A DNA stretch of 64,000 nucleotides from Candidatus Desulfarcum epimagneticum (GTDB lineage Bacteria > Desulfobacterota > Desulfobacteria > Desulfobacterales > CR-1): positions 85,902-149,901 of the forward strand of contig CAACVI010000050.1 in the NCBI GenBank assembly GCA_900659855.1, in the 5' to 3' direction. Numbering within the stretch: position 1 is the stretch's first letter; each line of letters starts with the position of its first letter. Positions 1,734 to 64,000 of the stretch are shown in pieces. The notes under the pieces are model-generated. The model worked only from the letters and a program-made list of their open reading frames with translations. It had not been told where the DNA came from and ran no database searches. The translations under genes were made by a program, and so were the position numbers.

Positions 1734-3650
1734 TCATTTATAGCATCTCTGGATCAATTCCACATTCTCAAAAACCAGCCTCTCCTGGAACAGGGCCGGG
1801 GCGGCGTCGGGTCCCCTGTATTGCCACGCGAACACGCAGGAGTAATGCTCGTCGTCGCGCCGGGCCTCTCCATCCTCGGTCTGGAATTCCTCCCGGAGGC
1901 TGCACCCGCAGGACTCGTTTCGCTCAAGGGCGTCGGCGGCCATGAGCCGGGCGAATTCCAGAAAGTCGGAAAGCCGCTCTCCCTTTTGAAGGCTTAGGTT
2001 GAACTCTTTGTCCGAGCCGGGTATTTTGACGTCTTTCCAAAATATTTCACTGAGTTCCCGGATTCGATCGATGGCTTTTTCCAGGCCCTGCCCGGTCCGG
2101 GCCATGCCCACCTCGTCCACCATGACGGCGCCCAGCTCCCGGTGGATGCTGTCCACGGTCCGGGTTCCGTTGATGGACAAAAGCCTTTCGGTTTTTTCCT
2201 CCACTTCTCTCACGGACTCGTCAAAGGCCGGGTGGTCCGTGCGATTTTCCCCGGGCCGGGGGGTTTCGGCCAGGTATCCCCCTATGGTGGCGGGAATGAT
2301 GAAATAGCCGTCGGCCAGCCCCTGCATCAGGGCGCTGGCCCCGAGGCGATTGGCGCCGTGGTCCGAGAAGTTGGCCTCGCCCAGGACAAAGAGGCCCTCA
2401 ATGCTGCTCATGAGATTGTAATCCACCCACAGGCCCCCCATGGTGTAATGGGCCGCCGGGTAGATCATCATGGGCGTCTCGTAGGGGTCGTTGTCCACGA
2501 TGTTGTGGTACATGTCAAAGAGGTTGCCGTATTTTTTGGCGATGGCCGCCTTTCCCTCCCGTTTGATGGCGTCGGCGAAATCCAGATAGACGGCGTAACC
2601 GGTGGGCCCCACGCCTTTGCCCGCGTCGCACTGCTCCTTGGCGTTTCGGGAGGCCACATCCCGGGGCACCAGGTTGCCGAATCCCGGGTACTTGGTCTCC
2701 AGGTAGTAGTCCCGATCGGACTCGGGGATGTCGGCGGGGGAGCGGTGGTCTCCCCTTTTTCTGGGGACCCACACCCGGCCGTCATTCCGCAGACTTTCGC
2801 TCATGAGCGTCAGCTTGGACTGGTAATCCCCGGTGTGGGGAATGCAGGTGGGGTGGATCTGGGCGAAGCCCGGGTTGGCGAAAAGGGCGCCTTTTCGGTA
2901 GGCCTTGAAGGCCGCGCCCACGTTGCAGGACATGGCGTTGGTGGACAGATAATACACGTTGGCGTATCCGCCCGTGGCCATGACCACGGCGTCCGCCGCG
3001 TGTCTTTCCAGTTCGCCGGTGACGAGATTCCGGGTCACGATCCCGGCGGCCTTTCCGTCAATGAGCACAATATCCAGCATTTCCCGGCGGGGAAACATTT
3101 TGACCCGGCCCGCCTGAATCTGCCGGGAAAGCGCGCTGTAGGCGCCCAGAAGAAGCTGCTGGCCGGTCTGGCCCCGGGCGTAGAAGGTCCGGGACACCTG
3201 GGCTCCCCCGAAGCTGCGGTTGGCCAGAAGCCCGCCGTAATCCCGGGCAAAGGGCACGCCCTGGGCCACGCACTGGTCGATGATATTGACGCTGAGCTGG
3301 GCCAGGCGGTAGATATTGGCTTCCCTGGAGCGGAAATCGCCGCCTTTGATGGTGTCGTAAAAAAGTCGCCACACGCTGTCGCCGTCATTCTGGTAGTTTT
3401 TGGCGGCGTTGATCCCCCCCTGGGCCGCGATGCTGTGGGCGCGCCGGGGGCTGTCCTGGACGCAGAAGGTTTTGACGTTGTAGCCCAGCTCCGCCAGACT
3501 GGCCGACGCGCTGCCGCCGGCAAGCCCGGTCCCCACCACGATGATGGTGTATTTTCTTTTGTTGGCCGGGTTGACCATTTTGAGATTGAACCGATGGTTG
3601 TCCCATTTGTCCTCAAGGGGGCCTTCGGGAATTTTTGCGTCGGGAAGCAT
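1734..3650 (-). CDS. sdhA: Succinate dehydrogenase / fumarate reductase flavoprotein subunit
   Basis: 638 aa. It has an N-terminal FAD fold ([20 protein letters not shown]) and the covalent-FAD His context ([14 protein letters not shown]), with family-typical sequence throughout. Confidence 0.93.
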
Positions 3651-5299: not shown

Positions 5300-5749
5300 A
5301 TGCTTTCGAACGACCGTGACGATTTTTTGCTCTCCGAGATCAATGTCACCCCTTTTGTGGACGTCATGCTGGTGCTTCTGATTATTTTCATGGTCACGGC
5401 CCCCATGATGACCCAGGGCGTCAATGTCTCGCTCCCGGAGATTTCCTCCGCCAGGCCCCTTCCTTCGGAGGCAAAACCGGTGATTGTGAGCGTGGACTCC
5501 GACGGCGCGGCGTATATCAATGGCCGGAAAACGCCGCCGGCTCTTTTTCGCCGCTCTCTTTTGAGGACCGTCAAAGACACCGGGAAAAGGGAAGTGTTTT
5601 TGAAAGCCGACCGAAAGGTTCCATACGGCGCGGTGGCCCGGGTTATTTCTGAAATTCATGAGGCGGGGATCGTCAGTCTGGGCATTGTGGCCCTGCCGTC
5701 CGGACGGGACGCCGGAAAAACGGACAAGGGCCCGGCGCGAAAGAAATGA
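5300..5749 (+). CDS. tolR: Tol-Pal system protein TolR (ExbD/TolR family)
   Basis: It has EINVTPFVDVMLVLLIIFMV and a single TM segment. The ATG at 5300 is preferred over the TTG at 5294 used by the ORF track. The stop overlaps the tolA ATG (ATGA). Confidence 0.85.
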   Translation: MLSNDRDDFLLSEINVTPFVDVMLVLLIIFMVTAPMMTQGVNVSLPEISSARPLPSEAKPVIVSVDSDGAAYINGRKTPPALFRRSLLRTVKDTGKREVFLKADRKVPYGAVARVISEIHEAGIVSLGIVALPSGRDAGKTDKGPARKK

Positions 5750-6744
5750 TCCCGACTCGAGACGCTCAACCTTACTTTAAGCCCGCGATTTTTGTTTCCG
5801 CCCTTTTTCACGGCGTTTTCGCCGCCGCGCTGTTTTTTTTTCCGGGTCTTTCCCTTTTCTCCGTCCCTCCTCCCCCGGCCATTCATGTCCGCCTCATCGC
5901 CCCGCCCGCTCCCGCGGCCGAAGCCGCCGGGGCCAAACGGCCCGCCGTCCGGCCGGCAAAGACCCGGGCGCCTGAGAAACCAAAGGCGTCCAGACCCAAA
6001 ATCAAAAAGCCGCCCAAGCCTCCGGAGCCTGAGGCGCCCCCAAAGCCTCACAACCCCCCGGAAGCGAAGAAACCCCCGGAAGCGAAGAAGCCCCCGGCCC
6101 TTTCTTTGTCCGTTCCTGAAAAAAAGGACCCGCCCCGGGAAAAGAGGAAAAAAAAGGTCAAGGAATCCCTTAAAAAAAAGACCTATGATCCCGCGGCGGT
6201 CAAGGCCAGGGAAAAGGCCATCTCCCGGATCAGACGGAAAGTCAAGGCGTCTGAGCAGGAAAAGAAGGCCGTCCGAAAGGAGCCGGCTCCGGCGCCTGAA
6301 AAACGGGTTGAGGCCCAAACCGGGATTCAGGAAAAGGCTGAGCCGGAGGAAAAAACCGCTGAGCCGTCGTCCGAAGGAAACTCCGCGCCCGCGGCCGCGG
6401 AGCGCGACGGGGTCCGGGGCGAGCGGATGAGGCTTTACAACATGGCGGTCAAGAGCCACATCGAGGCGAACTGGGCCTATTCTCCACTTCTGACCAAGGA
6501 GTTTTCCCGTCTGGAGGCGCTGGTGTCCATCACCATCATGCCGAACGGGGAAATCCGCGCCATCCAGATCGACAAGCGATCCGGAAGCGATTATTTTGAT
6601 GAGTCCATATACAGAGCGGTGGTGAAATCCAACCCTCTTCCCCGCCCGCCGGACATTTCCCCGGGGGACCGGACGCCGCATATCATCGGGTTCAGATTCA
6701 CGCCGCCCAGGCAGCCGGGGGGAGCCGGTCTGCGCGAGGATTAA
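5746..6744 (+). CDS. tolA: TolA-like protein (N-terminal TM, Pro/Lys/Glu-rich spacer, TolA/TonB-type C-terminal domain)
   Basis: 332 aa with a low-complexity PKPPEPEAPPKPHNPPEAKKPPEAKKPP spacer and a C-terminal region reading ALVSITIMPNGEIRAIQIDKRSGSDYFDESIYRAVVKSNPLP. It sits between tolR and tolB. Confidence 0.7.
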   Translation: MIPTRDAQPYFKPAIFVSALFHGVFAAALFFFPGLSLFSVPPPPAIHVRLIAPPAPAAEAAGAKRPAVRPAKTRAPEKPKASRPKIKKPPKPPEPEAPPKPHNPPEAKKPPEAKKPPALSLSVPEKKDPPREKRKKKVKESLKKKTYDPAAVKAREKAISRIRRKVKASEQEKKAVRKEPAPAPEKRVEAQTGIQEKAEPEEKTAEPSSEGNSAPAAAERDGVRGERMRLYNMAVKSHIEANWAYSPLLTKEFSRLEALVSITIMPNGEIRAIQIDKRSGSDYFDESIYRAVVKSNPLPRPPDISPGDRTPHIIGFRFTPPRQPGGAGLRED

Positions 6745-6746
6745 TT

Positions 6747-6876
6747 TTGATGGCGTCGTAAAAAATCCGATCTACGGCGTTGCGGCGCTTATTTTTAATT
6801 GAGGCATACTACATGTATTGCCTCAATTAAAAATAAGCGCTACGCCTTGTATATCGAACTTTTTACGACGCCGTCC
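6747..6876. repeat. About 130-bp imperfect palindromic intergenic repeat, copy 1 (tolA-tolB spacer)
   Basis: A perfect 22-bp stem (6785-6806 pairs with 6819-6840) flanks the 12-nt loop tactacatgtat, and weaker pairing extends through both arms. A near-identical copy lies at 59854-59984. Confidence 0.8.
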
Positions 6877-6896: not shown

Positions 6897-8258
6897 ATGA
6901 AGAAAAAACCAGCTGACGCATGTCGGGTCATGTTTATCGTTTTGATCGTCTGGGCCGCGGCGGCCGTTTTCCTGAATCCGGCCCCGGTTTTCGCAAAGCG
7001 GGATTATATTGATATCGACAACCCCCTGCTCAGGAAGATTCCGCTGGCCATTCCCCTTTGCGTTCCCATGTCCGGCTCCGCCGACGAGCTGGACATGTCG
7101 CGCATTCTGACCGATTTTTTTGTCAACACCCTGAGATTGACGGGGTATTTCATGATCATTGATCCCGAATCCCTGGAGGCCTCGGCCCTGGGGCCCCAGA
7201 GACCGGCCCGGAAAATCGTTCTGGCCCATCGGGATTTCCCGGACTGGCTCCAAAGCGGGGCCGAGCTTCTGGTCACATGCGGGATTTCTATCAAAAACGA
7301 TATGATGGACATGGAGCTTCGGCTCTATGACATTTATCGAAAAACGCTTCTGATGGGCAAGCGATACCGGGGTCATAAAAAAGATTACCGAAAAATGGCG
7401 CTGCGCTTCTGCGGCGATCTGGCCTTTATCCTCACGGGAAGCCGCTGGCTTTTTGAAACGAAAATCGCCTTTGTCTCCACCAGCGCCGGGAAAAAAGAGG
7501 TGTACATATGCGAGTTTGACGGGCGCGATCCCACGCGTTTCAGCTTCGCAAACAGCATTGTTCTGTCCCCGTCGTGGTCTTCCGACGGCCGCTGGCTGGC
7601 CTACACCTCCTACATGGCCGGCAGGCCGGACATTTATGTCCGAAATTTGAAACACAAAGGCGGCTCCGTGATATCCAGAAAGGGAATCAACGCCTTCCCG
7701 GACTGGTTCCCGGGTCGATTCGCCTTTGCCGCCACTCTGTCGTATTCCGGGGATCCTGAAATTTATTTGTTGACCGGGGATGGGAAAATTGTTAAAAGAT
7801 TGACATATTCAAAAGGGATTGATGTGTCGCCGTCATGGTCCCCGGACGGGAAACATCTCGCCTTTGTGTCCGACCGCTCCGGGACGCCCCAGGTGTATGT
7901 CAAGAACATGGCCTCAAACCAGGTGAGACGATTGACCTTCGACGGCGCCTACAACGCGTCCCCGGACTGGTCTCCAAAGGGCGACAGGATCGCTTTTTCG
8001 GGGGTGAAAGACGGTCGGTTTCATATTTTTGTCATTGGCGCCGGCGGCGGAAAAGCCATTCAGCTTACGCGCGGCTCCGGAAACAACGAATCGCCCTCAT
8101 GGTCCCCCAACGCGAGCCATATCGCCTTTAGCTCTTCGCGTTCGGGGGCTTATCGGATATACGTGATGACGGCGTCTGGAAACGGTCAGCACCGTCTGAC
8201 GCTTTTGCCGGGCGAGCAGACCGACCCTGAGTGGTCGCCTGTGATAAAAAAAAGATAA
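6897..8258 (+). CDS. tolB: Tol-Pal system beta-propeller protein TolB
   Basis: 453 aa with a signal peptide and repeated propeller blades (SPSWSSDG, SPSWSPDG, SPDWSPKG, SPSWSPNA). Confidence 0.92.
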   Translation: MKKKPADACRVMFIVLIVWAAAAVFLNPAPVFAKRDYIDIDNPLLRKIPLAIPLCVPMSGSADELDMSRILTDFFVNTLRLTGYFMIIDPESLEASALGPQRPARKIVLAHRDFPDWLQSGAELLVTCGISIKNDMMDMELRLYDIYRKTLLMGKRYRGHKKDYRKMALRFCGDLAFILTGSRWLFETKIAFVSTSAGKKEVYICEFDGRDPTRFSFANSIVLSPSWSSDGRWLAYTSYMAGRPDIYVRNLKHKGGSVISRKGINAFPDWFPGRFAFAATLSYSGDPEIYLLTGDGKIVKRLTYSKGIDVSPSWSPDGKHLAFVSDRSGTPQVYVKNMASNQVRRLTFDGAYNASPDWSPKGDRIAFSGVKDGRFHIFVIGAGGGKAIQLTRGSGNNESPSWSPNASHIAFSSSRSGAYRIYVMTASGNGQHRLTLLPGEQTDPEWSPVIKKR

Positions 8259-13491: not shown

Positions 13492-13554
13492 AAAACAGGT
13501 TGACAACAAAGCGCCGCCCGTGAGACAATGTCTTACAAAAAAGGAGGCGTGGAT

Positions 13555-13773
13555 ATGGAGACCACACTGACGATTCGTCTGTCCGAGGAGATGAAAAAGT
13601 CCCTGAATGATTTGTGTCAATCAGAGAGAAAGGGGCTCAGCGAGCTGGTGAGGGATTCTTTGGAAAACCACCTGGCGGTTAAGCGTTTCAGGCAGCTGCG
13701 CTCAAAATCTTTGCCTTTCGCGGAGGCGTCCGGTTTTCTCACGGACGAAGACGTGTTTGAGGGACTGACGTGA
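13555..13773 (+). CDS. Ribbon-helix-helix-type antitoxin
   Basis: AGGAGG lies 7 nt upstream of the ATG at 13555. The N-terminus reads METTLTIRLSEEMKKSLNDL. The stop overlaps the GTG start of the PIN gene (GTGA). Confidence 0.7.
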   Translation: METTLTIRLSEEMKKSLNDLCQSERKGLSELVRDSLENHLAVKRFRQLRSKSLPFAEASGFLTDEDVFEGLT

Positions 13774-14189
13774 AAATCGTTTTTGACTCAAATGTCTATA
13801 TCGCGGCTTTCGCGACCCATGGGATTTGTCACCTGCTTTTTGAGAGCGGCATACGCGATCATGATGTGTTCTCAAGCGCTTTTATACTGGGCGAAGTCAA
13901 CGCGAAACTGATTGAAAAAATGAAGCTGCCGGCCAAAACAGTTCATGAGATTATGGACTATTTAAGGGCTCAGACGATTGTGAACCGCCCGAAAATTCAA
14001 TTGTCGGGAATATCCAGAGACCCCGATGACGACAATGTGATTTCTCTGGCGGTGGAAGCCGGGGCCGGGCACATCGTCACCGGCGACAAAGACCTTCTGG
14101 ACCTGAAACGATACCCATCCATCCGCATTGTCTCTCCCAGAATGTTTTCTGAAATTTTGAGGTCTCAAGACATTTATCCGGATGAATAA
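13770..14189 (+). CDS. PIN-domain toxin
   Basis: 139 aa with IVFDSNVYIAA and DPDDDNVISLAVEAGAGHIVTGDKDLL (PIN acidic residues). It is coupled to the upstream RHH gene. Confidence 0.8.
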   Translation: MKIVFDSNVYIAAFATHGICHLLFESGIRDHDVFSSAFILGEVNAKLIEKMKLPAKTVHEIMDYLRAQTIVNRPKIQLSGISRDPDDDNVISLAVEAGAGHIVTGDKDLLDLKRYPSIRIVSPRMFSEILRSQDIYPDE

Positions 14190-20175: not shown

Positions 20176-20385
20176 ATGGAGACCACACTGACGATCCGTT
20201 TGTCCGAGGAGGTGAAAAAGTCCCCGAATGATCTGTGTCAATCGGAAAGAAAAGGGCTCAGCGAGCTGGTGAGGGATTTGTTTGAAAATTACTTGACGAT
20301 TAAGCGTTTCAGACAGTTGCGCTCAAAATCTTTTCCTTTCGCGGAGACAACCGGTTTTCTCACGCATCAAGACGTTTTTGAGTAA
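20176..20385 (+). CDS. Orphan RHH antitoxin paralogue (second copy of the 13555 gene)
   Basis: 69 aa, METTLTIRLSEEVKKSPNDLCQSERKGLSELVRD..., clearly alignable at the DNA level with 13555-13773. Confidence 0.6.
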   Translation: METTLTIRLSEEVKKSPNDLCQSERKGLSELVRDLFENYLTIKRFRQLRSKSFPFAETTGFLTHQDVFE

Positions 20386-20527: not shown

Positions 20528-20605
20528 TGGCGTCCCCAAGGGGATTTGAACCCCTGTTGCCGGCGTGAAAGGCCGGTGTCCTGGACCAGGCTAGACGATG
20601 GGGAC
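20528..20605 (-). tRNA. tRNA-Glu (anticodon UUC), CCA encoded
   Basis: The minus strand reads GTCCCCATCGTCTAGCCTGGTCCAGGACACCGGCCTTTCACGCCGGCAACAGGGGTTCAAATCCCCTTGGGGACGCCA. It folds as a cloverleaf with the anticodon loop CTTTCAC. Confidence 0.9.
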
Positions 20606-20617
20606 GCGGGATGGAGA

Positions 20618-20693
20618 TGGTGGGCCGTGCTGGGCTCGAACCAGCGACTCTCTGCTTAAAAGGCAGATACTCTACCGACTGAGTTAACGGCCC
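20618..20693 (-). tRNA. tRNA-Lys (anticodon UUU), CCA encoded
   Basis: The minus strand reads GGGCCGTTAACTCAGTCGGTAGAGTATCTGCCTTTTAAGCAGAGAGTCGCTGGTTCGAGCCCAGCACGGCCCACCA, with the anticodon loop CTTTTAA. Confidence 0.9.
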
Positions 20694-29973: not shown

Positions 29974-31431
29974 TTAGAACCCCTTGAGCTTGCCGGAAGT
30001 CCTGAGCATTTTGATCACGGCGTTGGGGGTCTTCTTTTTGAACGGTTTGGCGTGGAGCCGTTTGTTCACATCATCCTGAGAAGCCACAAAACCGGGGGAC
30101 TCCTTAAAGAGAACCGGCTGGAGCATCCACTCCCCGGGAAGAGAATTTTCAATCAGGTCCAGGGTTTTTTCCTGGTATTCCATTTTTTCCAGCCGGGTGA
30201 TCCACAGCCTGTTTTCAGCCTGGTTGAGCATGGGGTGGTCATTGGGGCTGTCCCCGGCCACCAGGAAGGGCCTGCCGTAGCTGACGAACTTGAAAATATT
30301 GGCCAGCTGTCCGAAGTATCCCGTCAGGGGATACACCACCTGGGTGGTCAGCCGGTAGTTGGTCAATTCGGCGATGTCCATGTTGGCGTAGGCCTGGTTG
30401 GTTTTGGCCAGCAAAGAGTCCTGGTGCATGATTCCCGTCCGGTTGTCCTCAACCAGAACGCTGATTCCGATGACGTGATCGGGGGCGATGGCGGCCTCCG
30501 CTCCGTATTTGGCCTGAATCAGGGGATTGAGATGTTTGAGAACGATCCATCTCGCCGTCCATGTGTTGCTGGTGGAGAAGATATACACATCGTACCCGTT
30601 TTTGACCAAAAGCCCTGTCAGGTCGACCATTTCCGGGTAGAAGAAGGGCTGGAGATATCCGTTCACCTTGGTTTCCTGAAGGTTGGGATAGGTCCTGTCC
30701 AGTCTGGCGATTCCGTTGGCGTAGGCCTTTTCTGTGGAGCTGGCGATGTCGGCGGGCGTCATGCCGGCCATGATCTGGGTCAGCCACACATACCCGTTGG
30801 AATACGGGGAAAGCTCTTCGGGCTGCTCCTTGGTGACGGAAAGGAAATTGTTGTAAAACTGGGCGGGACCGCTGAAGTCGGCGATGTCCACCCGGGTGTT
30901 GTTCAGCTTGCCGGACGGGGTGATGTTGGCGGGGATGTTTCTTGAAGTGATTTTTTTGTCTCCCACCATGGAGGCGAAGGTCGCCTCGCCGATGTCCCGG
31001 CAGATGAGGGTATTGTCAAAGTCGATGATGACTTTTTTGCCCTGTCCCGCGTTCTGGGCGATTAAATTTTCCAGCCTGGACTTTACTTCAGGAATCCAGT
31101 CGCCGTTGTCCAGCGTCCCGGTTCCCGCCACAGGGGCTGAGACCGCGGTGGCCGTGGCGGCCGCGGTCTGGGGGGCGGCTTCGTCAACGGCCGCCGGAGC
31201 GTCCGCCGGGGCTTCCGGAGCGGCGGCGATCTGACCAGGGACGACTGCGGCGGGGGCTTCCGGGGCCGGGGCCGCCGGGGCGTCGGGATCGAATTCCGCG
31301 ACCGTGTCGCCCGCCGTCTCATCCGGAAAATCGGCGATAATCGATTGAGATCTTCCGGCGCAGCTCCCGAAAAGGAATGACACAATAAATAACAGACTGA
31401 TCAGGTTGATTACAATAAAACTTTTTTTCAT
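29974..31431 (-). CDS. Secreted HAD-superfamily hydrolase lipoprotein (SerB-like fold)
   Basis: The internal ATG at 31431 has a ggagg RBS. The lipobox reads LFGSCAG, followed by an Ala/Pro-rich linker and HAD motif I (VIIDFDNTLICRD). Confidence 0.65.
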   Translation of the reverse strand: MKKSFIVINLISLLFIVSFLFGSCAGRSQSIIADFPDETAGDTVAEFDPDAPAAPAPEAPAAVVPGQIAAAPEAPADAPAAVDEAAPQTAAATATAVSAPVAGTGTLDNGDWIPEVKSRLENLIAQNAGQGKKVIIDFDNTLICRDIGEATFASMVGDKKITSRNIPANITPSGKLNNTRVDIADFSGPAQFYNNFLSVTKEQPEELSPYSNGYVWLTQIMAGMTPADIASSTEKAYANGIARLDRTYPNLQETKVNGYLQPFFYPEMVDLTGLLVKNGYDVYIFSTSNTWTARWIVLKHLNPLIQAKYGAEAAIAPDHVIGISVLVEDNRTGIMHQDSLLAKTNQAYANMDIAELTNYRLTTQVVYPLTGYFGQLANIFKFVSYGRPFLVAGDSPNDHPMLNQAENRLWITRLEKMEYQEKTLDLIENSLPGEWMLQPVLFKESPGFVASQDDVNKRLHAKPFKKKTPNAVIKMLRTSGKLKGF

Positions 31432-31718
31432 TGAAGACCTCCAATTTCCCTTATTAAATAGGTGATTTTTTTCCGCATGATTTAAATCGATTTTGACGGC
31501 CTTAAACATTTGGAGCGTTTTATTTCGCCGTTTTCCATTTCCAAGGGGGGCGTGTCATGGCCGACCCGATCGTTTGTCTTTTGGTATTTACTTATAAAAA
31601 AACAACCTTTTGAACTTAGCCCGGAAAGCGGGGCTTGTCAAGACGATTATAAAAATTTAAGGGCGTTTTTCAACGCGGGCCGATTTGGAAATCTCCAGTC
31701 CGCCATGCCATCTGTAAG

Positions 31719-57816: not shown

Positions 57817-57836
57817 GCCTCGATTAAAAAGAAGCG
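57817..57836. repeat. 20-nt fragment matching the right core of the palindromic repeat family
   Basis: gcctcgattaaaaagaagcg here versus gcctcgattaaaaataagcg at 59927-59946, a 19 of 20 match. Confidence 0.4.
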
Positions 57837-59065: not shown

Positions 59066-59255
59066 GCCAAACGATCCAATTCCTTGCGGGGGCGGCGGCC
59101 CCCGCTGAAAACAGTTCGATTCTCCACACAAATAAAACCCCTCCTGCGACCTTGACGATATCCGAGAAAATATCTTGCGGAAATGAGACAAGGCATGCCT
59201 TGTCTCCCATGTCTTAAGAGGGGACCAATTACCAACCTCATGTCCTTTGCGTTTG

Positions 59256-59492
59256 TCAAAGGCGCCGGCCGGATTCCGCTTTGATCCGTTCCGCAATCCA
59301 GACTTTGATGATAGACTGTCTTGTGACGCCGATTCGGGTCGCCTCGCGGTCCAGGGAGCGGATCATCCAAGCCGGAAAATTAACATTGACCCGCCTTTGC
59401 TCTAAAGCGGGCCGTTTTTGGGTGGCGAGATCCAGATACGGCGTGATATCCTCGCCATTATCGAAAAGTTCGTCAAGTTTTTCAGCTTTCAT
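59256..59492 (-). CDS. brnA: BrnA-type antitoxin (RHH/CopG-like C-terminus)
   Basis: 78 aa, RVNVNFPAWMIRSLDREATRIGVTRQSIIKVWIAERI. It overlaps brnT by 11 nt. Confidence 0.75.
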   Translation of the reverse strand: MKAEKLDELFDNGEDITPYLDLATQKRPALEQRRVNVNFPAWMIRSLDREATRIGVTRQSIIKVWIAERIKAESGRRL

Positions 59493-59745
59493 TATATAGT
59501 CTCCTTTCGCCTTTTCCGGACCTTCGGACTGAAATAATTCTGACGCGGCTTTCCCGTATTGTGAAAAAAGCGCTCCATAGTTTGCCCCGATAAGAAGCGA
59601 TTAGGGCATATCGGGATTCAGTTTCACTTTTGGCCTGAACTTGGAGTCTGTTCACATCTTCCCAAAGGCGTTTGGCCTCTTCGAAGTCAATTCCATGTTT
59701 CTTTTTGTTCGTTTCGCTTTTATTCGGGTCATATTCAAATTCCAT
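59482..59745 (-). CDS. brnT: BrnT-type toxin (DUF497 ribonuclease family)
   Basis: MEFEYDPNKSETNKKKHGIDFEEAKRLWED...RIISVRRS. The internal ATG at 59745 is preferred. Confidence 0.8.
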   Translation of the reverse strand: MEFEYDPNKSETNKKKHGIDFEEAKRLWEDVNRLQVQAKSETESRYALIASYRGKLWSAFFTIRESRVRIISVRRSGKGERRLYNES

Positions 59746-59853
59746 GATGCCCCAAGATATCACAGACCCCACATTCCCTCAATAAAAATCATTCGGCGAG
59801 GCGCTTCTCCGCCATTTTTTTTGCATTCCCTTGTCTTGTGTGATACGGATTCA

Positions 59854-59984
59854 TTGATGGCGTCGTAAAAAATTCGATCTACCGCGTTGCGGCGCTTATT
59901 TTTAATCGAGGCATACTACATGTATTGCCTCGATTAAAAATAAGCGCCACGCCTTGTATATCGAATTTTTTGACTTAGCCATCC
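59854..59984. repeat. About 130-bp imperfect palindromic intergenic repeat, copy 2
   Basis: A perfect 22-bp stem (59892-59913 pairs with 59926-59947) with the same 12-nt loop as copy 1. The two copies are near-identical over roughly 110 nt and diverge in the right-hand terminus. Confidence 0.8.
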
Positions 59985-60112
59985 CAAGCTTTTTTACGAG
60001 TTTATCATTTATTGTCTCAAAATTTTTTTCACGCTTTTCCGGAAAGCGCCGGGGCGGGCCCGGGGACTCCAGGGAGAGCCGATTTGACGGAACCGGACAG
60101 GGGGAGGATATC

Positions 60113-61522
60113 ATGGGGGATGATCAAAAGAAGGGGAAAAAACTTGCGATCCTGGGCGCTTTTGTTTTGGCCGCGTTTTTGATGACGGCGCCGCCGGCGA
60201 TCTCCAAACCCCAGGGAGAAACAGGGGAAGAGCTGTACCAGAGGCTCTCTGAAATCGCCGCTGGAAAGGGCGATATCAAGCTGTTTGAAACCTTAAAGCG
60301 CGAGTCCGGGAAACTGGACTGGACAAAATCCCGGGAAATGGAATTTTCAGGAAACCTTCGCATTCTTAAATCCGGCGCGGACCCGGCCCCGGAAAGCGCC
60401 GGAAACGTGTATCTTTTAAGGAGGCTTGACGGGGAGGTTTTTATTTTATCGCTTCCCGAAGACCCCGCCATGCTGGGGGAGAACGCGGATTCCTTTTACG
60501 CCGGCCTTGAAGGCATGTACAAAAACAAAATGATCTTCAAGGTAGGGACAATCCGGGGGCAAGTGGAAGGGCATGTGTATGACTTTGTCCGTCTCATGGA
60601 GAAACCCCAACCTCTTTTGTTGGATAAGATATTTAAAATATTCATTATACTTATGCTTTTCTTTGTCATGGTCGGCATGGGGCTCACCTTGACCTTAAAG
60701 GAGTTCGCCCTGGTCTTTAAAAAACCGAGGGGAATCATCGTCGGCCAGATCCTGCAATTCGGACTGATGCCCCTTCTTGCCATGGGACTGGGGCATCTGC
60801 TGGGGTTTTATGAGCGCTATCCCTTTATTTTTGTGGGCATGATTCTGATCACCGCGATCCCGGGGGGCGTGACCTCGAATCTGATGACCTACTACGCCAA
60901 AGGGGATCTGGCTCTTTCCATATCCCTGACATCCTTTTCCACCGTCCTTTCCATTTTTTTCACGCCCATGCTGCTGGCGCTTTATTGCGCGAATCTGCCT
61001 GAAATTGTGATTCCGGTGAAAGTCGTGGTTCAAACCATTCTGATCCTGGTCATCGCGCCCCTTGCCACGGGCATGTCCCTGCGACATAAATGGCCGGCGT
61101 TCGCGGAAAAATCCACGCCGTTTTTTTCCGGGTTGGGAATCGTGGCCCTGCTGATACTGGTTGTGGCGGGAATTTCAAGCAATCTGAACTCGTTTGCGGA
61201 CACGGCCCGGTATGGCGTCAAATTTTACTCGACGGTTTTCTCCCTGACCTTTTTGGGAATGATCCTGGGCGTTTTGTTTTCCAAAGCGTTTTCCGTCAAC
61301 AATTACCAGACCCGGGCGATTTCCCTTGAAACCGGTTTGCGAAACGCCTCACTGGCCATGACCATCGCTTTGCTGATCCAGGACGCCACCGGGGATTTCC
61401 ACAGCTCCATGTTCTTCACCTCCGGAATATTCGGATTGGCGATGTATTTCGCCGGGCTTCTTTCAATCGTTTTGTACAAGCCGCTGCTGCCGGTCCAGCC
61501 CGGGGAATCGTCCTCCGGCTGA
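60113..61522 (+). CDS. Bile acid:sodium symporter (BASS/SBF) family transporter with an extra N-terminal extracytoplasmic domain of roughly 170 aa
   Basis: The RBS ggagg precedes the ATG at 60113. A signal or TM segment (LAILGAFVLAAFLMTAPPA) is followed by a soluble segment and then the BASS core (GMGLTLTLKEF...GLMPLLAMGL...IPGGVTSNLMTY). The track start at 59954 lies inside the repeat. Confidence 0.8.
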   Translation: MGDDQKKGKKLAILGAFVLAAFLMTAPPAISKPQGETGEELYQRLSEIAAGKGDIKLFETLKRESGKLDWTKSREMEFSGNLRILKSGADPAPESAGNVYLLRRLDGEVFILSLPEDPAMLGENADSFYAGLEGMYKNKMIFKVGTIRGQVEGHVYDFVRLMEKPQPLLLDKIFKIFIILMLFFVMVGMGLTLTLKEFALVFKKPRGIIVGQILQFGLMPLLAMGLGHLLGFYERYPFIFVGMILITAIPGGVTSNLMTYYAKGDLALSISLTSFSTVLSIFFTPMLLALYCANLPEIVIPVKVVVQTILILVIAPLATGMSLRHKWPAFAEKSTPFFSGLGIVALLILVVAGISSNLNSFADTARYGVKFYSTVFSLTFLGMILGVLFSKAFSVNNYQTRAISLETGLRNASLAMTIALLIQDATGDFHSSMFFTSGIFGLAMYFAGLLSIVLYKPLLPVQPGESSSG

Positions 61523-61621
61523 TCGCGCCGCTGAGACGAAACGATTTTCAAACGTTTATAGTCAAAAGCATAAAATGCACAGATGATCAAAGACCTTCAA
61601 ATTACAATATTTTGGTTATAA

Positions 61622-61638
61622 TTTTTACGATGCCGTCC
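61622..61638. repeat. 17-nt fragment matching the terminal arm of the palindromic repeat family
   Basis: tttttacgatgccgtcc here versus tttttacgacgccgtcc at 6860-6876, a 16 of 17 match. Confidence 0.35.
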
Positions 61639-61696
61639 GATCTGTTTTTTACGGGTTTATCAATTTCCTTAAGTGTGAAAAAGGAGCAATGTAGAA

Positions 61697-62926
61697 ATGC
61701 CTGAAAGAAAAGTATTCGTTAACAGTTTAAAACTTAAGAATCTTTTGTCTTTTGGCGATAAAAGCGATGATATTGAACTGGGTCCTTTGAATGTCCTGAT
61801 CGGGAAAAATTCGTGCGGAAAATCAAATTTCATTGAAGCCTTTTCTTTGTTAAAATCTTTGCCGAAAGATTTGCTTGCTCCCATACGAAGAGGCGGAGGG
61901 ATCAGGGAATGGCTTTGGAAAGGTTCCGACGAAAGTTCGGTCGCGGAGTTGAATTTGTCGCTCAATTATCCCGGGGACCCTATTCCTTTGAGATACAGGC
62001 TTAACTTTTCGGAAGTCAGCCAGCGCCTTGAGATTTTTGATGAAGCCATTGAGAGCGCTCGCAAAACCCATGAATCAGAGGATGACGTCTATTTTTATTA
62101 CCGGTATATGGGTGGCTCGCCTGTTTTAAATGTTCGAAATCCTGAAAGTCGCGCTCCGGAACAAAACGATGGAAGGGGCGGGATCAAGCGAAAACTCCAC
62201 AGGGAAGACTTGGGGATCAATCAGTCTGTTTTGTCCCAGAGAAAAGATCCGGATCTGTACCCGGAGCTGACGTTTATCAGCAATCGCTTTTCAGAGATCA
62301 GGTTGTTCAGGGACTGGAATCTTGGAAGGCGCTCGCCGCCTCGTCTTCCCCAAAGCCCGGATCTGCCGGAAGATTTTCTTTTGGAAGATATGAGCAATCT
62401 TGGGCTTGTCCTGAACAATCTCCAGCATGAACCAGCGGCCAAGCGGGCTATTTTGGAGAATTTGAATTATTTTTATGATGAATTTGATGATATTTCGACG
62501 AAAATTCATGGCGGAACCGTTCAGATTTTTCTGCACGAAAAAAAATTGACCCAGCCTGTTCCGGCCACGCGCCTTTCCGATGGAACGCTTCGTTTTTTAT
62601 GCCTGATCGTTATTCTATGCCATCCCGACCCTCCGCCGCTGATCTGCATTGAAGAGCCGGAATTGGGATTGCATCCTGATATTTTACCGCATGTCGCCAG
62701 GATGCTTCTGCAAGCCTCTGAAAAAACACAGCTGATTGTGACGACCCACTCCGATATCATTGTCGATGAGCTGACGGACCGCCCGGATTCAGTGGTGGTT
62801 TGTGAAAAACATGACGGTTTGACGAAGACGCGCCGCCTGGACGCAGAGTCGCTTAAAGGGTGGCTTAAAGAATATTCTTTGGGAGAGTTGTGGCGAAGTG
62901 GCGAAATCGGGGGAAATCGATGGTAA
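61697..62926 (+). CDS. ABC/SMC-type (AAA_21/AAA_15-like) ATPase, OLD-family-like
   Basis: Walker A LIGKNSCGKSN, signature-like LSDGTLRF, Walker B LICIEEPELGLHP, H-loop LIVTTHS. The gene is AT-rich relative to its neighbours. Confidence 0.8.
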   Translation: MPERKVFVNSLKLKNLLSFGDKSDDIELGPLNVLIGKNSCGKSNFIEAFSLLKSLPKDLLAPIRRGGGIREWLWKGSDESSVAELNLSLNYPGDPIPLRYRLNFSEVSQRLEIFDEAIESARKTHESEDDVYFYYRYMGGSPVLNVRNPESRAPEQNDGRGGIKRKLHREDLGINQSVLSQRKDPDLYPELTFISNRFSEIRLFRDWNLGRRSPPRLPQSPDLPEDFLLEDMSNLGLVLNNLQHEPAAKRAILENLNYFYDEFDDISTKIHGGTVQIFLHEKKLTQPVPATRLSDGTLRFLCLIVILCHPDPPPLICIEEPELGLHPDILPHVARMLLQASEKTQLIVTTHSDIIVDELTDRPDSVVVCEKHDGLTKTRRLDAESLKGWLKEYSLGELWRSGEIGGNRW

Positions 62927-63531
62927 AAATTTATGTCGAAGGCGGCGGAGATCAGGCGAGATCGAAATCTCAGTTCAGGAGGGGATTCAGCGAGTTTTTT
63001 TCCGGAGCCCTTCCTGAAGGCAAAAAGCCGAGAATCATTGCCTGCGGCAGTCGGAAAAAAGCGTATGACCGCTTCCACACGGCCATTCGTGAAAATAAAA
63101 ATGAATTTTGCATGCTCCTTGTGGACAGCGAAGGGCCTGTCCATGATGGTATCAAACGATGGGATTTTTTGAAAATCCGAAGGGCTGATGGATGGGAGAA
63201 GCCCGACGGCGCCCATGAAGACAATGTTCAGTTCATGGTTCAATGCATGGAAAGCTGGTTTCTGGCCGATAAAGATTGTCTTGCGGATTTCTTTGGCCAA
63301 GGTTTCAATCCCGGGGCGCTTCCGAACAATCCGGAAATTGAAAGGGTTCCCAAAAAGGATGTGTTTGGAGGTTTAAAAAACGCCTCCCGGCATGCAAGGA
63401 CCAAAGGCGGGTATAAGAAAGGACGTCATTCTTTCGAAATTCTGGCAAAGATCAATCCCCAAAAAGTGTGTGAGGCGTCTGATCACGCGAGAAATTTGAT
63501 TGACACCTTGAAAAATAAAATGGTAGGTTAG
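62920..63531 (+). CDS. DUF4276-like (Toprim-like) protein
   Basis: The internal ATG overlaps the ATPase stop (ATGGTAA). The protein reads MVKIYVEGGGD...LLVDSEGPV...QCMESWFLAD, the conserved acidic pattern I associate with DUF4276. Confidence 0.7.
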   Translation: MVKIYVEGGGDQARSKSQFRRGFSEFFSGALPEGKKPRIIACGSRKKAYDRFHTAIRENKNEFCMLLVDSEGPVHDGIKRWDFLKIRRADGWEKPDGAHEDNVQFMVQCMESWFLADKDCLADFFGQGFNPGALPNNPEIERVPKKDVFGGLKNASRHARTKGGYKKGRHSFEILAKINPQKVCEASDHARNLIDTLKNKMVG

Positions 63532-63619
63532 ATCGTCGCATTGGGTTTGAAAAATTCGTAAAAACCGATCAGGCGCCGTGATGTTTTGACGCAAAGCAAA
63601 TGGTCCGGGGAAGGCAAAG

Positions 63620-64000
63620 ATGAAAGACGAGATAAAGAAAATCGTTCAAAATAAAAAGTCCGGGAAGATCAAAAGGTGGGTCAGGATGACCCTGGCCATT
63701 TTCGTTCTGCCTTCGGTTCTCTTTGTCGCGGGGGCGGCCCAGGCGGGAGAGGAATGGCCCCGCGTGGTCGCCTCCGGGGACGGGGTTCCCATCTCCTATG
63801 AGGTTTATGGGAAAGGCGATCCGGCCCTTGTGTTTGTGCATGGCTGGAGCTGCGACGCCCGGTACTGGCGGGCCCAGACCCCGCGTTTTTCCCGAAAACA
63901 CAGGGTGATTCTCCTGGACCTGGCCGGGCATGGCCATTCGGGACACGGACGCTCGCGGCACACCATGAGGGCTTTTGGGGAGGATGTCCGGGCCGTGGCC
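63620..64000 (+). CDS. Alpha/beta-fold hydrolase with an N-terminal signal/anchor (3' end outside the window)
   Basis: The frame is open to the window edge and contains PALVFVHGWSCDARYW...VILLDLAGHGHS. Confidence 0.75.
   Translation, partial: MKDEIKKIVQNKKSGKIKRWVRMTLAIFVLPSVLFVAGAAQAGEEWPRVVASGDGVPISYEVYGKGDPALVFVHGWSCDARYWRAQTPRFSRKHRVILLDLAGHGHSGHGRSRHTMRAFGEDVRAVA

Follow-up and report, generated by a model that had tools for sequence, protein, structure and literature searches.

The 64,000-nucleotide stretch of the genome of Candidatus Desulfarcum epimagneticum that was analysed here, which we call the window, carries a family of AT-rich, almost fully palindromic repeats of approximately 130–155 nt. 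The palindromic repeat family is real and previously undescribed, and it probably represents a mobile element that is non-autonomous and MITE/REPIN-like. The repeat itself is far beyond chance. One full copy (copy 1) lies in the sense orientation within the tolQ-tolR-tolA-tolB-pal cluster and the other (copy 2) lies between two divergent genes (Table 1). Together with partial members, the local density is two full copies, one inferred copy edge and two relics or fragments in approximately 66 kb. The host is an uncultured sulfate-reducer of the Desulfobacteraceae that lives as a magnetotactic ectosymbiont on a protist. In symbiont genomes of this kind small mobile DNA is expected to proliferate, and, to our knowledge, this has been little documented.

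Copy 1 (6747–6864) and copy 2 (59854–59971) align without gaps and are identical at 112 of 118 positions (94.9%; direct reading and alignment), which bears out the near-identity described in the original prediction. Both contain the same 22-nt arm, GCGCTTATTTTTAAT[T/C]GAGGCA, together with its exact reverse complement (6785–6806 and 6819–6840 in copy 1, 59892–59913 and 59926–59947 in copy 2), and the 12-nt loop between the arms, TACTACATGTAT, is identical in the two copies. A pattern search finds four exact arm matches in the window with none expected in shuffles, and the perfect 22-bp stem with a shared loop that had been claimed for each copy is therefore sound. The perfect stem of copy 2 reaches 23 bp through one more pair, G59891-C59948, where copy 1 has G·T. 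The six differences over the 118 nt are, as copy 1/copy 2, 6767 C/T, 6776 G/C, 6800 T/C, 6825 A/G, 6841 T/C and 6859 C/T. A covariance model derived from copies 1 and 2 recovers, when applied unfiltered to both strands, exactly these two full copies in the 64 kb, at 162.5 bits for copy 1 and 164.8 bits for copy 2. No diverged copies were detected with this model in the window or in the corresponding loci of relatives.

The whole element, at approximately 127 nt, is an imperfect inverted repeat that forms an imperfect hairpin of approximately 55 bp. The minimum free energy of the RNA is -75.4 kcal/mol for copy 1 and -70.7 kcal/mol for copy 2 (z -13.9 and -10.8, respectively), and folding as single-stranded DNA gives -49 and -46 kcal/mol. 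The plus and minus strands of the element fold about equally. Its GC content is 0.41–0.43, compared with 0.578 for the window, and it is without coding capacity, all six frames being interrupted or startless. The similarity between the copies ends at the element boundaries and the flanks are unrelated. Small size, absence of coding sequence and the occurrence of several copies at unrelated loci are features expected of a MITE, and they are all found here.

The element also has terminal inverted repeats. The 5' module of copy 1 has its exact complement at 6860–6872, and the terminal arms are 27 nt long and 85% complementary. The right end is comprised of two modules in tandem, a TTTTT(T)ACGAYGCCGTCC-like module followed by the outer module TTTTTTACGRSTTTATCA, and the left terminal module, TGATGGCGTCGTAAAAAA, is a variant of each of them in inverted form. 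From left to right, copy 2 contains the 5' module, the long hairpin, the inner 3' module (59966–59984) and the outer 3' module. Copy 2 had been delimited as 59854–59984, but its 3' end is further on, since the outer module reaches 60007. Because copy 2 carries this module 3' of the region first delimited, the full-length form of the element is taken to be approximately 154 nt. Copy 1 has apparently lost its outer module (approximately 19–25 nt) by deletion between ATTTTT repeats. The inner module exists as sub-variants, GACTTAGCCATCC in copies 2 and 3 and ACGAYGCCGTCC in copy 1, the relic and the closest relative, whose TolB is 87% identical. When the 3' ends of four members are aligned, the outer module is shared and the sequence beyond it is unrelated. 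Candidate target-site duplications are (A)ATTTT at copy 1 and CATT at copy 2; they differ in length and lie in AT-rich flanks, next to element ends that are uncertain by a few nucleotides.

Table 1. Positions of the repeat copies, their parts and the adjoining genes within the 64,000-nucleotide window
Feature	Position	Strand	Remarks
tolA/TonB-C-type gene	5746..6744	+	Upstream of copy 1; stop codon 6742-6744
Copy 1 of the palindromic repeat	6747..6876	+	3'-truncated, without outer terminal module; within the 152 nt between tolA and tolB, tol-pal operon
Copy 1 apex: 22-bp stem, 12-nt loop 6807-6818	6785..6840	.	T6800 pairs with A6825
Copy 1 inner 3' terminal module TTTTTACGACGCCGTCC	6860..6876	+	Inverted partner of the 5' module GGCGTCGTAAAAA (6755-6767)
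tolB, VEN75249.1	6897..8258	+	21 nt downstream of copy 1; ATG 6897
Possible inner 3' arm fragment CCTCGATTAAAAAGAAGCGA	57817..57836	+	19/20 to copy 2; rnfG-rnfE spacer
BrnT-family toxin gene	59482..59772	-	Diverges from copy 2; antitoxin 59256-59492
Copy 2, full-length form, approximately 154 nt	59854..60007	+	Divergent spacer between brnT (-) and SBF-type transporter (+)
Copy 2 apex: 23-bp stem 59891-59913/59926-59948, loop 59914-59925	59891..59948	.	C59907 pairs with G59932
Outer 3' terminal module TTTTTTACGAGTTTATCA	59990..60007	+	Common to the relic, the third copy and, by back-translation, the 87% relative
SBF-family transporter	60113..61522	+	Start ATG 60113 from the Logan gene call
Relic with just the two 3' terminal modules: TTTTTACGATGCCGTCC, gatctg, TTTTTTACGGGTTTATCA	61622..61662	+	35 nt upstream of the HEC-01A ATPase gene

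The additional members came to light when copies 1 and 2 were compared by sensitive blastn with the window and with Logan contigs, and the matching stretches were then read directly. The far end of one contig, L004 (5604–5632), is the reverse complement of the copy 2 outer module and the preceding CCATCCCAAGC, with 28 of 29 nt matching (E 1e-8). This position is equivalent to approximately 65.58–65.61 kb, which is 17 nt from the start of yefM and 1.6 kb past the window. From these 29 nt at the contig end we infer a third copy, in inverted orientation. The possible fragment at 57817–57836 has 3 mismatches in 22 to the arm, with no such match expected, and a blastn E of 0.003.

Copy 2, the relic and the third copy are all within a region of 0.41–0.52 GC that starts at approximately 59.2 kb. 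This low-GC island contains the brnT/brnA toxin-antitoxin pair (59256–59772, minus strand), the transporter, the HEC-01 candidate defence pair, a hydrolase, a CopG-type antitoxin and YoeB-YefM. Most copies of the element are thus clustered in an accessory island that is rich in toxin-antitoxin and defence genes, and this accumulation, along with the truncated relics and the sub-variants, fits mobile DNA. In the two cases where the element is between tandem genes (copy 1 and the relic), its 3' end is toward the start of the downstream gene.

The Logan contigs of run ERR2856278 stop on either side of both copies, at 6770|6857 and at 59904|59981. Copies 1 and 2 have no exact run above 24 nt in common, and the assembler k for these contigs is presumably 31. 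Since shared runs of 24 nt or less are shorter than this k, the breaks suggest either further near-identical copies or a loss of coverage related to the hairpin. The element has also disturbed gene calling. The TTG at 59954, given as the start of the transporter in the list of open reading frames, is the TTG of TTGTATATCGAA in the 3' arm of the element. It is an artefact, as had been suspected from the start, because the Logan call begins at 60113, with the SBF domain starting only at residue 180 of the product.

The tolA-tolB spacer gives a view of the insertion history. From the tolA stop to the tolB ATG there are 152 nt here, 15 nt in the relatives L008 and L007 (TolB 65%) and 28 nt in L009 (TolB 68%). 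The tolA end GATTAA is ancestral, because it is also present in L008. Since both GATTAA and the tolB ribosome-binding region AAGGGGGCTTTTATG can still be made out at the flanks of copy 1, the copy is an insertion into a short ancestral spacer. In the closest relative, P0013 (JGI metagenome 3300072015), TolB is 87% identical and the tolA-tolB spacer, from gene coordinates, is approximately 177 nt; the element in this organism is read solely via these coordinates and a mis-called protein N-terminus. Its TolB has been called 26 codons upstream of the MKKK start, as LYIESLQCRLIHFLRVYQFLKGKGLF-MKKK. Within the extension, LYIE equals TTGTATATCGAA of the 3' arm and FLRVYQ equals the outer module, TTTTTTACGGGTTTATCAA. 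When the extension is compared with all six reading frames of the window, the relic ranks first, as LRCRPICFLRVYQF (11/14, E 8e-4), with the 3' ends of copies 1 and 2 among those that follow. The TTG of the element lies 99 nt from the tolA stop in P0013 and 102 nt from it here. As the extension reads through the 3' arm and the outer module, the orthologous site in P0013 is filled, with the full two-module end. Orthologous sites are therefore found both empty (L008 and L009) and filled (here and P0013), as would be expected of a MITE. The tolA-tolB copy predates the split from the 87% relative and has been retained, as would also be expected of a useful cis-element.

The original prediction had not recognised the sequence, and the database searches agree with this. 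Two tRNAs alone reach the gathering threshold when the window is searched against Rfam, and the element reaches none. With permissive settings, plant and animal miRNA-precursor models give 25–44 bits on both strands against thresholds of 75–230, and these matches are generic hairpin resemblance. No blastn match (word 11, E ≤ 0.01) was found in 20,395 E. coli records (5,426 complete genomes), and membership of ERIC or of E. coli REP/BIME is ruled out by sequence on this basis. There was likewise no blastn match to the element in plasmids or phages, and a two-arm gapped pattern had no match in viral contigs. The inner arm, GCGCTTATTTTTAATNGAGGCA, had one single-arm chance match each in the GTDB representative genomes and the JGI metagenomes (L001, in a Glaciecola coding region, and L003), and the source genome is evidently absent from both collections. 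At the protein level, six-frame translations of the element returned no candidate at E ≤ 10 from a database of 5.8 billion proteins. The 44-aa open frame of copy 2, compared with 1.84 billion representatives, matched only a repetitive 1567-aa protein through summed weak matches, and was rejected as spurious. Simple scans of the element found neither an outward promoter nor an IHF site.

Other classes of structured element were considered and rejected. Integron attC sites occur in a cassette array, are co-oriented and have R''/R' boxes of the form RYYYAAC...GTTRRRY; here the third copy has the opposite orientation, copy 1 belongs to the tol-pal operon, and the element ends read TGATGGCG... and ...TTTATCA. 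CRISPR arrays, retron or RT-linked ncRNAs and structures of the IS200/605 omega-RNA type were set aside because the partner genes that they require are absent nearby and there is no Rfam match.

Among described families, the closest in form include bacterial MITEs that are palindromic throughout, such as the Correia repeat enclosed elements of Neisseria, which are likewise 100–160 nt with terminal inverted repeats and a long hairpin (PMC2649163, PMC2229807, PMC10969869). They too are intergenic, often co-transcribed, and present as several copies with relics and with filled and empty sites. Unlike these, the element described here has no established sequence similarity to them, no TA or other consistent target-site duplication, no detected IHF site or outward promoter, and a right end made of two tandem terminal modules. 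REPINs are also symmetrical hairpins of approximately 100 nt or more that are built from two inverted halves and are extragenic, and their long-lived, vertical inheritance would agree with the presence of an orthologous copy in the 87% relative (PMC3116915, PMC3337134). The long symmetrical hairpin that defines the REPIN shape is present. REPINs number tens to hundreds of extragenic copies; the local density here is 2–3 full copies per 66 kb. However, the arms here are AT-rich with a 22-bp perfect apex and have only a weak local hairpin of 5 pairs, in contrast to the two short GC-rich palindromes of a REPIN. The ERIC/IRU elements of the Enterobacteriaceae are imperfect palindromes of approximately 127 nt in transcribed intergenic sequence, as is copy 1 (127–130 nt), but they share no sequence similarity with it and belong to a different host phylum. 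The comparison with ERIC and MITE elements in the original prediction was one of size and shape, and to that extent a palindromic interspersed repeat is confirmed.

Copies 1 and 2 differ within the stem at one pair only, T6800·A6825 in the former and C59907·G59932 in the latter, just as had been reported. Is this the result of selection on the pairing of the hairpin, as RNA or as cruciform DNA? Or, has the same change simply been made on both arms? The paired change is real, yet too weak to show selection on RNA. When six substitutions were placed randomly on 118 nt with the observed transition bias, at least one pair-preserving double change arose in 3–6% of the simulated trials (p approximately 0.03–0.06). 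Double-sided pairs number 1 of 43, a value reached by 251 of 500 shuffles, and with two sequences (n=2) this comparison has almost no power. The statistically supported covariation that marks a structured RNA was accordingly not found among these two sequences. Four of the differences affect one side only, and pairs are broken by three of them: C6767 and C6859 produce C·A and A·C mismatches in the plus strand of copy 1, which is transcribed with tol-pal, and would be G·U in the antisense strand alone, and C59883 gives a C·C mismatch in copy 2. The fourth, T6841, gives G·U in copy 1 where copy 2 has G-C. With one event among six, a p of approximately 0.03–0.06 and three other differences that break pairs, selection on hairpin pairing is unproven, and the argument for it in the original prediction does not stand.

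The substitution is the same on each arm when read 5' to 3' (AATTGAGGCA versus AATCGAGGCA) and sits at the CpG of TCGA. Templated correction from one arm to the other, or parallel mutation at a hotspot, explains it equally well. Quasi-palindrome template switching is a mutational mechanism from E. coli genetics; it alters the two arms of an imperfect inverted repeat identically and so mimics compensatory evolution, although it is a mechanism rather than an element family. The most economical causes are arm correction, by such template switching or by conversion within the element, or a need for hairpin integrity in transposition, and the change between T·A and C·G can be explained without selection for a functional RNA. 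Two-sided changes are common in the hairpins of mobile REPINs (PMC3116915).

Could the element instead be a selected cis-acting RNA hairpin, whose duplex processes or stabilises mRNA and whose paired change reflects purifying selection on pairing? We regard this as possible but unlikely, and give the same standing to the roles that have been proposed for such an RNA, the uncoupling of tolQRA from tolB-pal by an RNase III site or a barrier to 3'-exonucleases, and a 5'-UTR element of the transporter. It would account for one true double-sided change within the 22-bp perfect stem, for the sense placement of copy 1 inside an operon so close to the tolB start, for a site that is still filled in the 87%-TolB relative and for the direction of the element 3' end toward the downstream start in copy 1 and the relic. 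Neisseria Correia elements provide a precedent, being documented RNase III substrates that alter the expression of their neighbours (PMC2649163). However, the simulated p is only approximately 0.03–0.06 for a single event, the shuffle control lends no support, the C·A, A·C and C·C mismatches include two in the transcribed strand of copy 1, the two strands fold equally and no Rfam family matches. Relatives with spacers of 15–28 nt manage without the element, and the relics and island clustering suit mobile DNA better. A REPIN in the strict sense, comprised of two inverted REP-like units and mobilised through its single-stranded DNA hairpin by a single-copy RAYT (an IS200-like tyrosine transposase), seems rather unlikely to us. 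The minus strand has GTAG (copy 1) or GTGG (copy 2) directly 5' of the perfect stem, a tetranucleotide that we take to resemble the GT[AG]G of REP sequences and treat as a lead. The strong single-stranded DNA hairpin (-46 to -49 kcal/mol), the size and the symmetrical doublet-hairpin shape agree with a REPIN, of which two-sided changes are typical (PMC3116915). Against these points, the arms contain no convincing short GC-rich REP palindrome, the sole candidate being a stem of 5 pairs of which two are G·T, and the tandem A/T-rich terminal modules look more like terminal repeats bound by a transposase. Neither a RAYT nor another transposase is present among the window ORFs scanned, and there is no similarity to E. 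coli REP/BIME.

Two further possibilities concern what a mobile repeat might have become, and the case for either is doubtful: a domesticated hairpin acting as a switch of RNA processing or stability, or a MITE-bounded composite transposon formed by copy 2 and the inverted third copy. If the former were true, pairing would be selected and every transcribed copy would be a switch, for example in the tol-pal operon. In the latter case, copy 2 and the inferred third copy, with 5.6 kb of low-GC sequence between them (SBF transporter, HEC-01 pair, hydrolase, CopG and YoeB-YefM), would together move a defence and toxin-antitoxin island within a symbiont genome. It is very unlikely that the element is a DNA-level or termination signal, that is, a bidirectional intrinsic terminator or attenuator or a protein-binding palindrome between transcription units. 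A small GC hairpin followed by TTATTTTTAAT does occur in each arm, a terminator scan is positive on both strands, and CATTTTTG follows the base of the full hairpin in copy 1. Yet these small hairpins, with 3 G-C and 2 G·T pairs, are weak and face competition from a long hairpin of -75 kcal/mol. Termination at the intra-operonic copy 1 would silence tolB-pal, and the divergent genes around copy 2 have no need of a terminator. This reading would also leave the relics, the terminal modules and the empty sites in relatives unexplained. That the repeat is the product of chance or of a segmental duplication, with no family behind it, was already disfavoured and is hardly credible. The number of full copies read, which is two, would allow it, but the similarity stops at the element ends with unrelated flanks, no matches are expected in shuffles, and there are extra partial members and an orthologous copy in another organism.

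For a non-autonomous mobile repeat of the MITE/REPIN type, the following mechanism may be proposed. A transposase encoded elsewhere in the genome would move the element in trans, and would recognise the terminal modules, the single-stranded DNA hairpin, or both. Where the element has entered a transcribed spacer, it would be co-transcribed, and its RNA would fold as a long duplex. This duplex may incidentally be a target of RNase III, a barrier to exonucleases or a partial terminator between the genes on either side.

The repeat family does not overturn current understanding. It adds an undescribed palindromic repeat family for a poorly studied lineage, and, if abundant, the family could serve in strain typing and offer a case in which selection on a hairpin might be told apart from arm-to-arm correction. 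The element also accounts for several oddities of the public data, including the spurious ORF start at 59954, the artificial 26-codon extension of TolB in the metagenome relative, the breaks in public assembly contigs at every copy and the unusually long tolA-tolB spacer. With regard to other genes of this genome, the RnfA protein is VEN75301.1. An RHH antitoxin is duplicated in the window, and a search for its paralogues matched just those two and one unrelated sample.

The accessory island around copy 2 of the palindromic, MITE-like repeat has a GC content of 0.41–0.52 versus 0.586. Its 5.6-kb core is flanked by copy 2 and by an inverted third copy, inferred from 29 nt at the far end of Logan contig L004, past the window. 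The ends of these copies that carry two tandem 3' terminal modules point inward. From this arrangement, the two copies could bound a composite unit. Within the island, an AAA-ATPase and a DUF4276 protein match the candidate defence system HEC-01 in sequence comparison (HEC-01A 7e-178; HEC-01B 4e-78).

Features in and adjoining the window
Feature	Window position	Remarks
RHH antitoxin and PIN toxin module	13528-14189	
Second RHH antitoxin copy	20176-20385	degenerate, without toxin
511-aa ORF	29974-31509	minus strand, amid housekeeping genes
Accessory island	~59200-64000, and L004 to ~65612	BrnT/BrnA, SBF transporter, HEC-01, alpha/beta hydrolase, CopG-type antitoxin, YoeB-YefM
HEC-01 candidate defence pair	61697-63531	AAA-ATPase (409 aa) and DUF4276 protein (203 aa); PADLOC match
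Contig stops at element copies	6770, 6857, 59904, 59981, ~65612	Logan run ERR2856278

All Logan contigs that reach a copy of the element (L002, L004, L005 and L010; ERR2856278) end in or near it, and the hairpin core is absent from each of the four. An end of L005 is a perfect 22-nt palindrome, GGGGCGAAAAATTTTTCGCCCC (L005 positions 6915-6936, ~145-165 nt before window position 1). This palindrome has no sequence relationship to the repeat family. It follows directly on an MscS-type channel gene and probably terminates transcription in both directions.

Outside the copies, the top score of the covariance model built from copies 1 and 2 is 14.8 bits, at 3345-3364. Here TTTGATGGTGTCGTAAAAAAG matches the left (5') terminal module of the element at 19 of 20 positions (E 0.003), within a minus-strand gene for a succinate dehydrogenase/fumarate reductase flavoprotein (1734-3650). 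The match may be due to chance or may point to the target or origin of the element.

The two RHH antitoxin copies are 88% identical over 280 nt and 83% identical as protein. The degenerate copy lies upstream of a pair of adjacent tRNA genes on the minus strand (20531-20693), at a distance of ~150 nt. Among 5.8 billion proteins searched, the antitoxin has only one further close relative, a 76% homologue from the unrelated run SRR28369931. For the 511-aa ORF no Pfam family scored above threshold, the best being only a 19-bit HAD fragment.

In the nearest relative of TolB (87% identity; 3714-bp contig, JGI 3300072015), an artificial extension of 26 residues precedes the MKKK start and is a translation of the orthologous repeat element. 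Repeat-derived start codons therefore contaminate protein databases. For the window itself, the ATG at 6897 lies 11 codons upstream of the start that NCBI annotates for TolB (VEN75249.1, 442 aa). This ATG lines up with the relative's MKKK start and is served by a good ribosome-binding site, GAAAGGGG; the deposited protein is therefore probably too short at its N-terminus.
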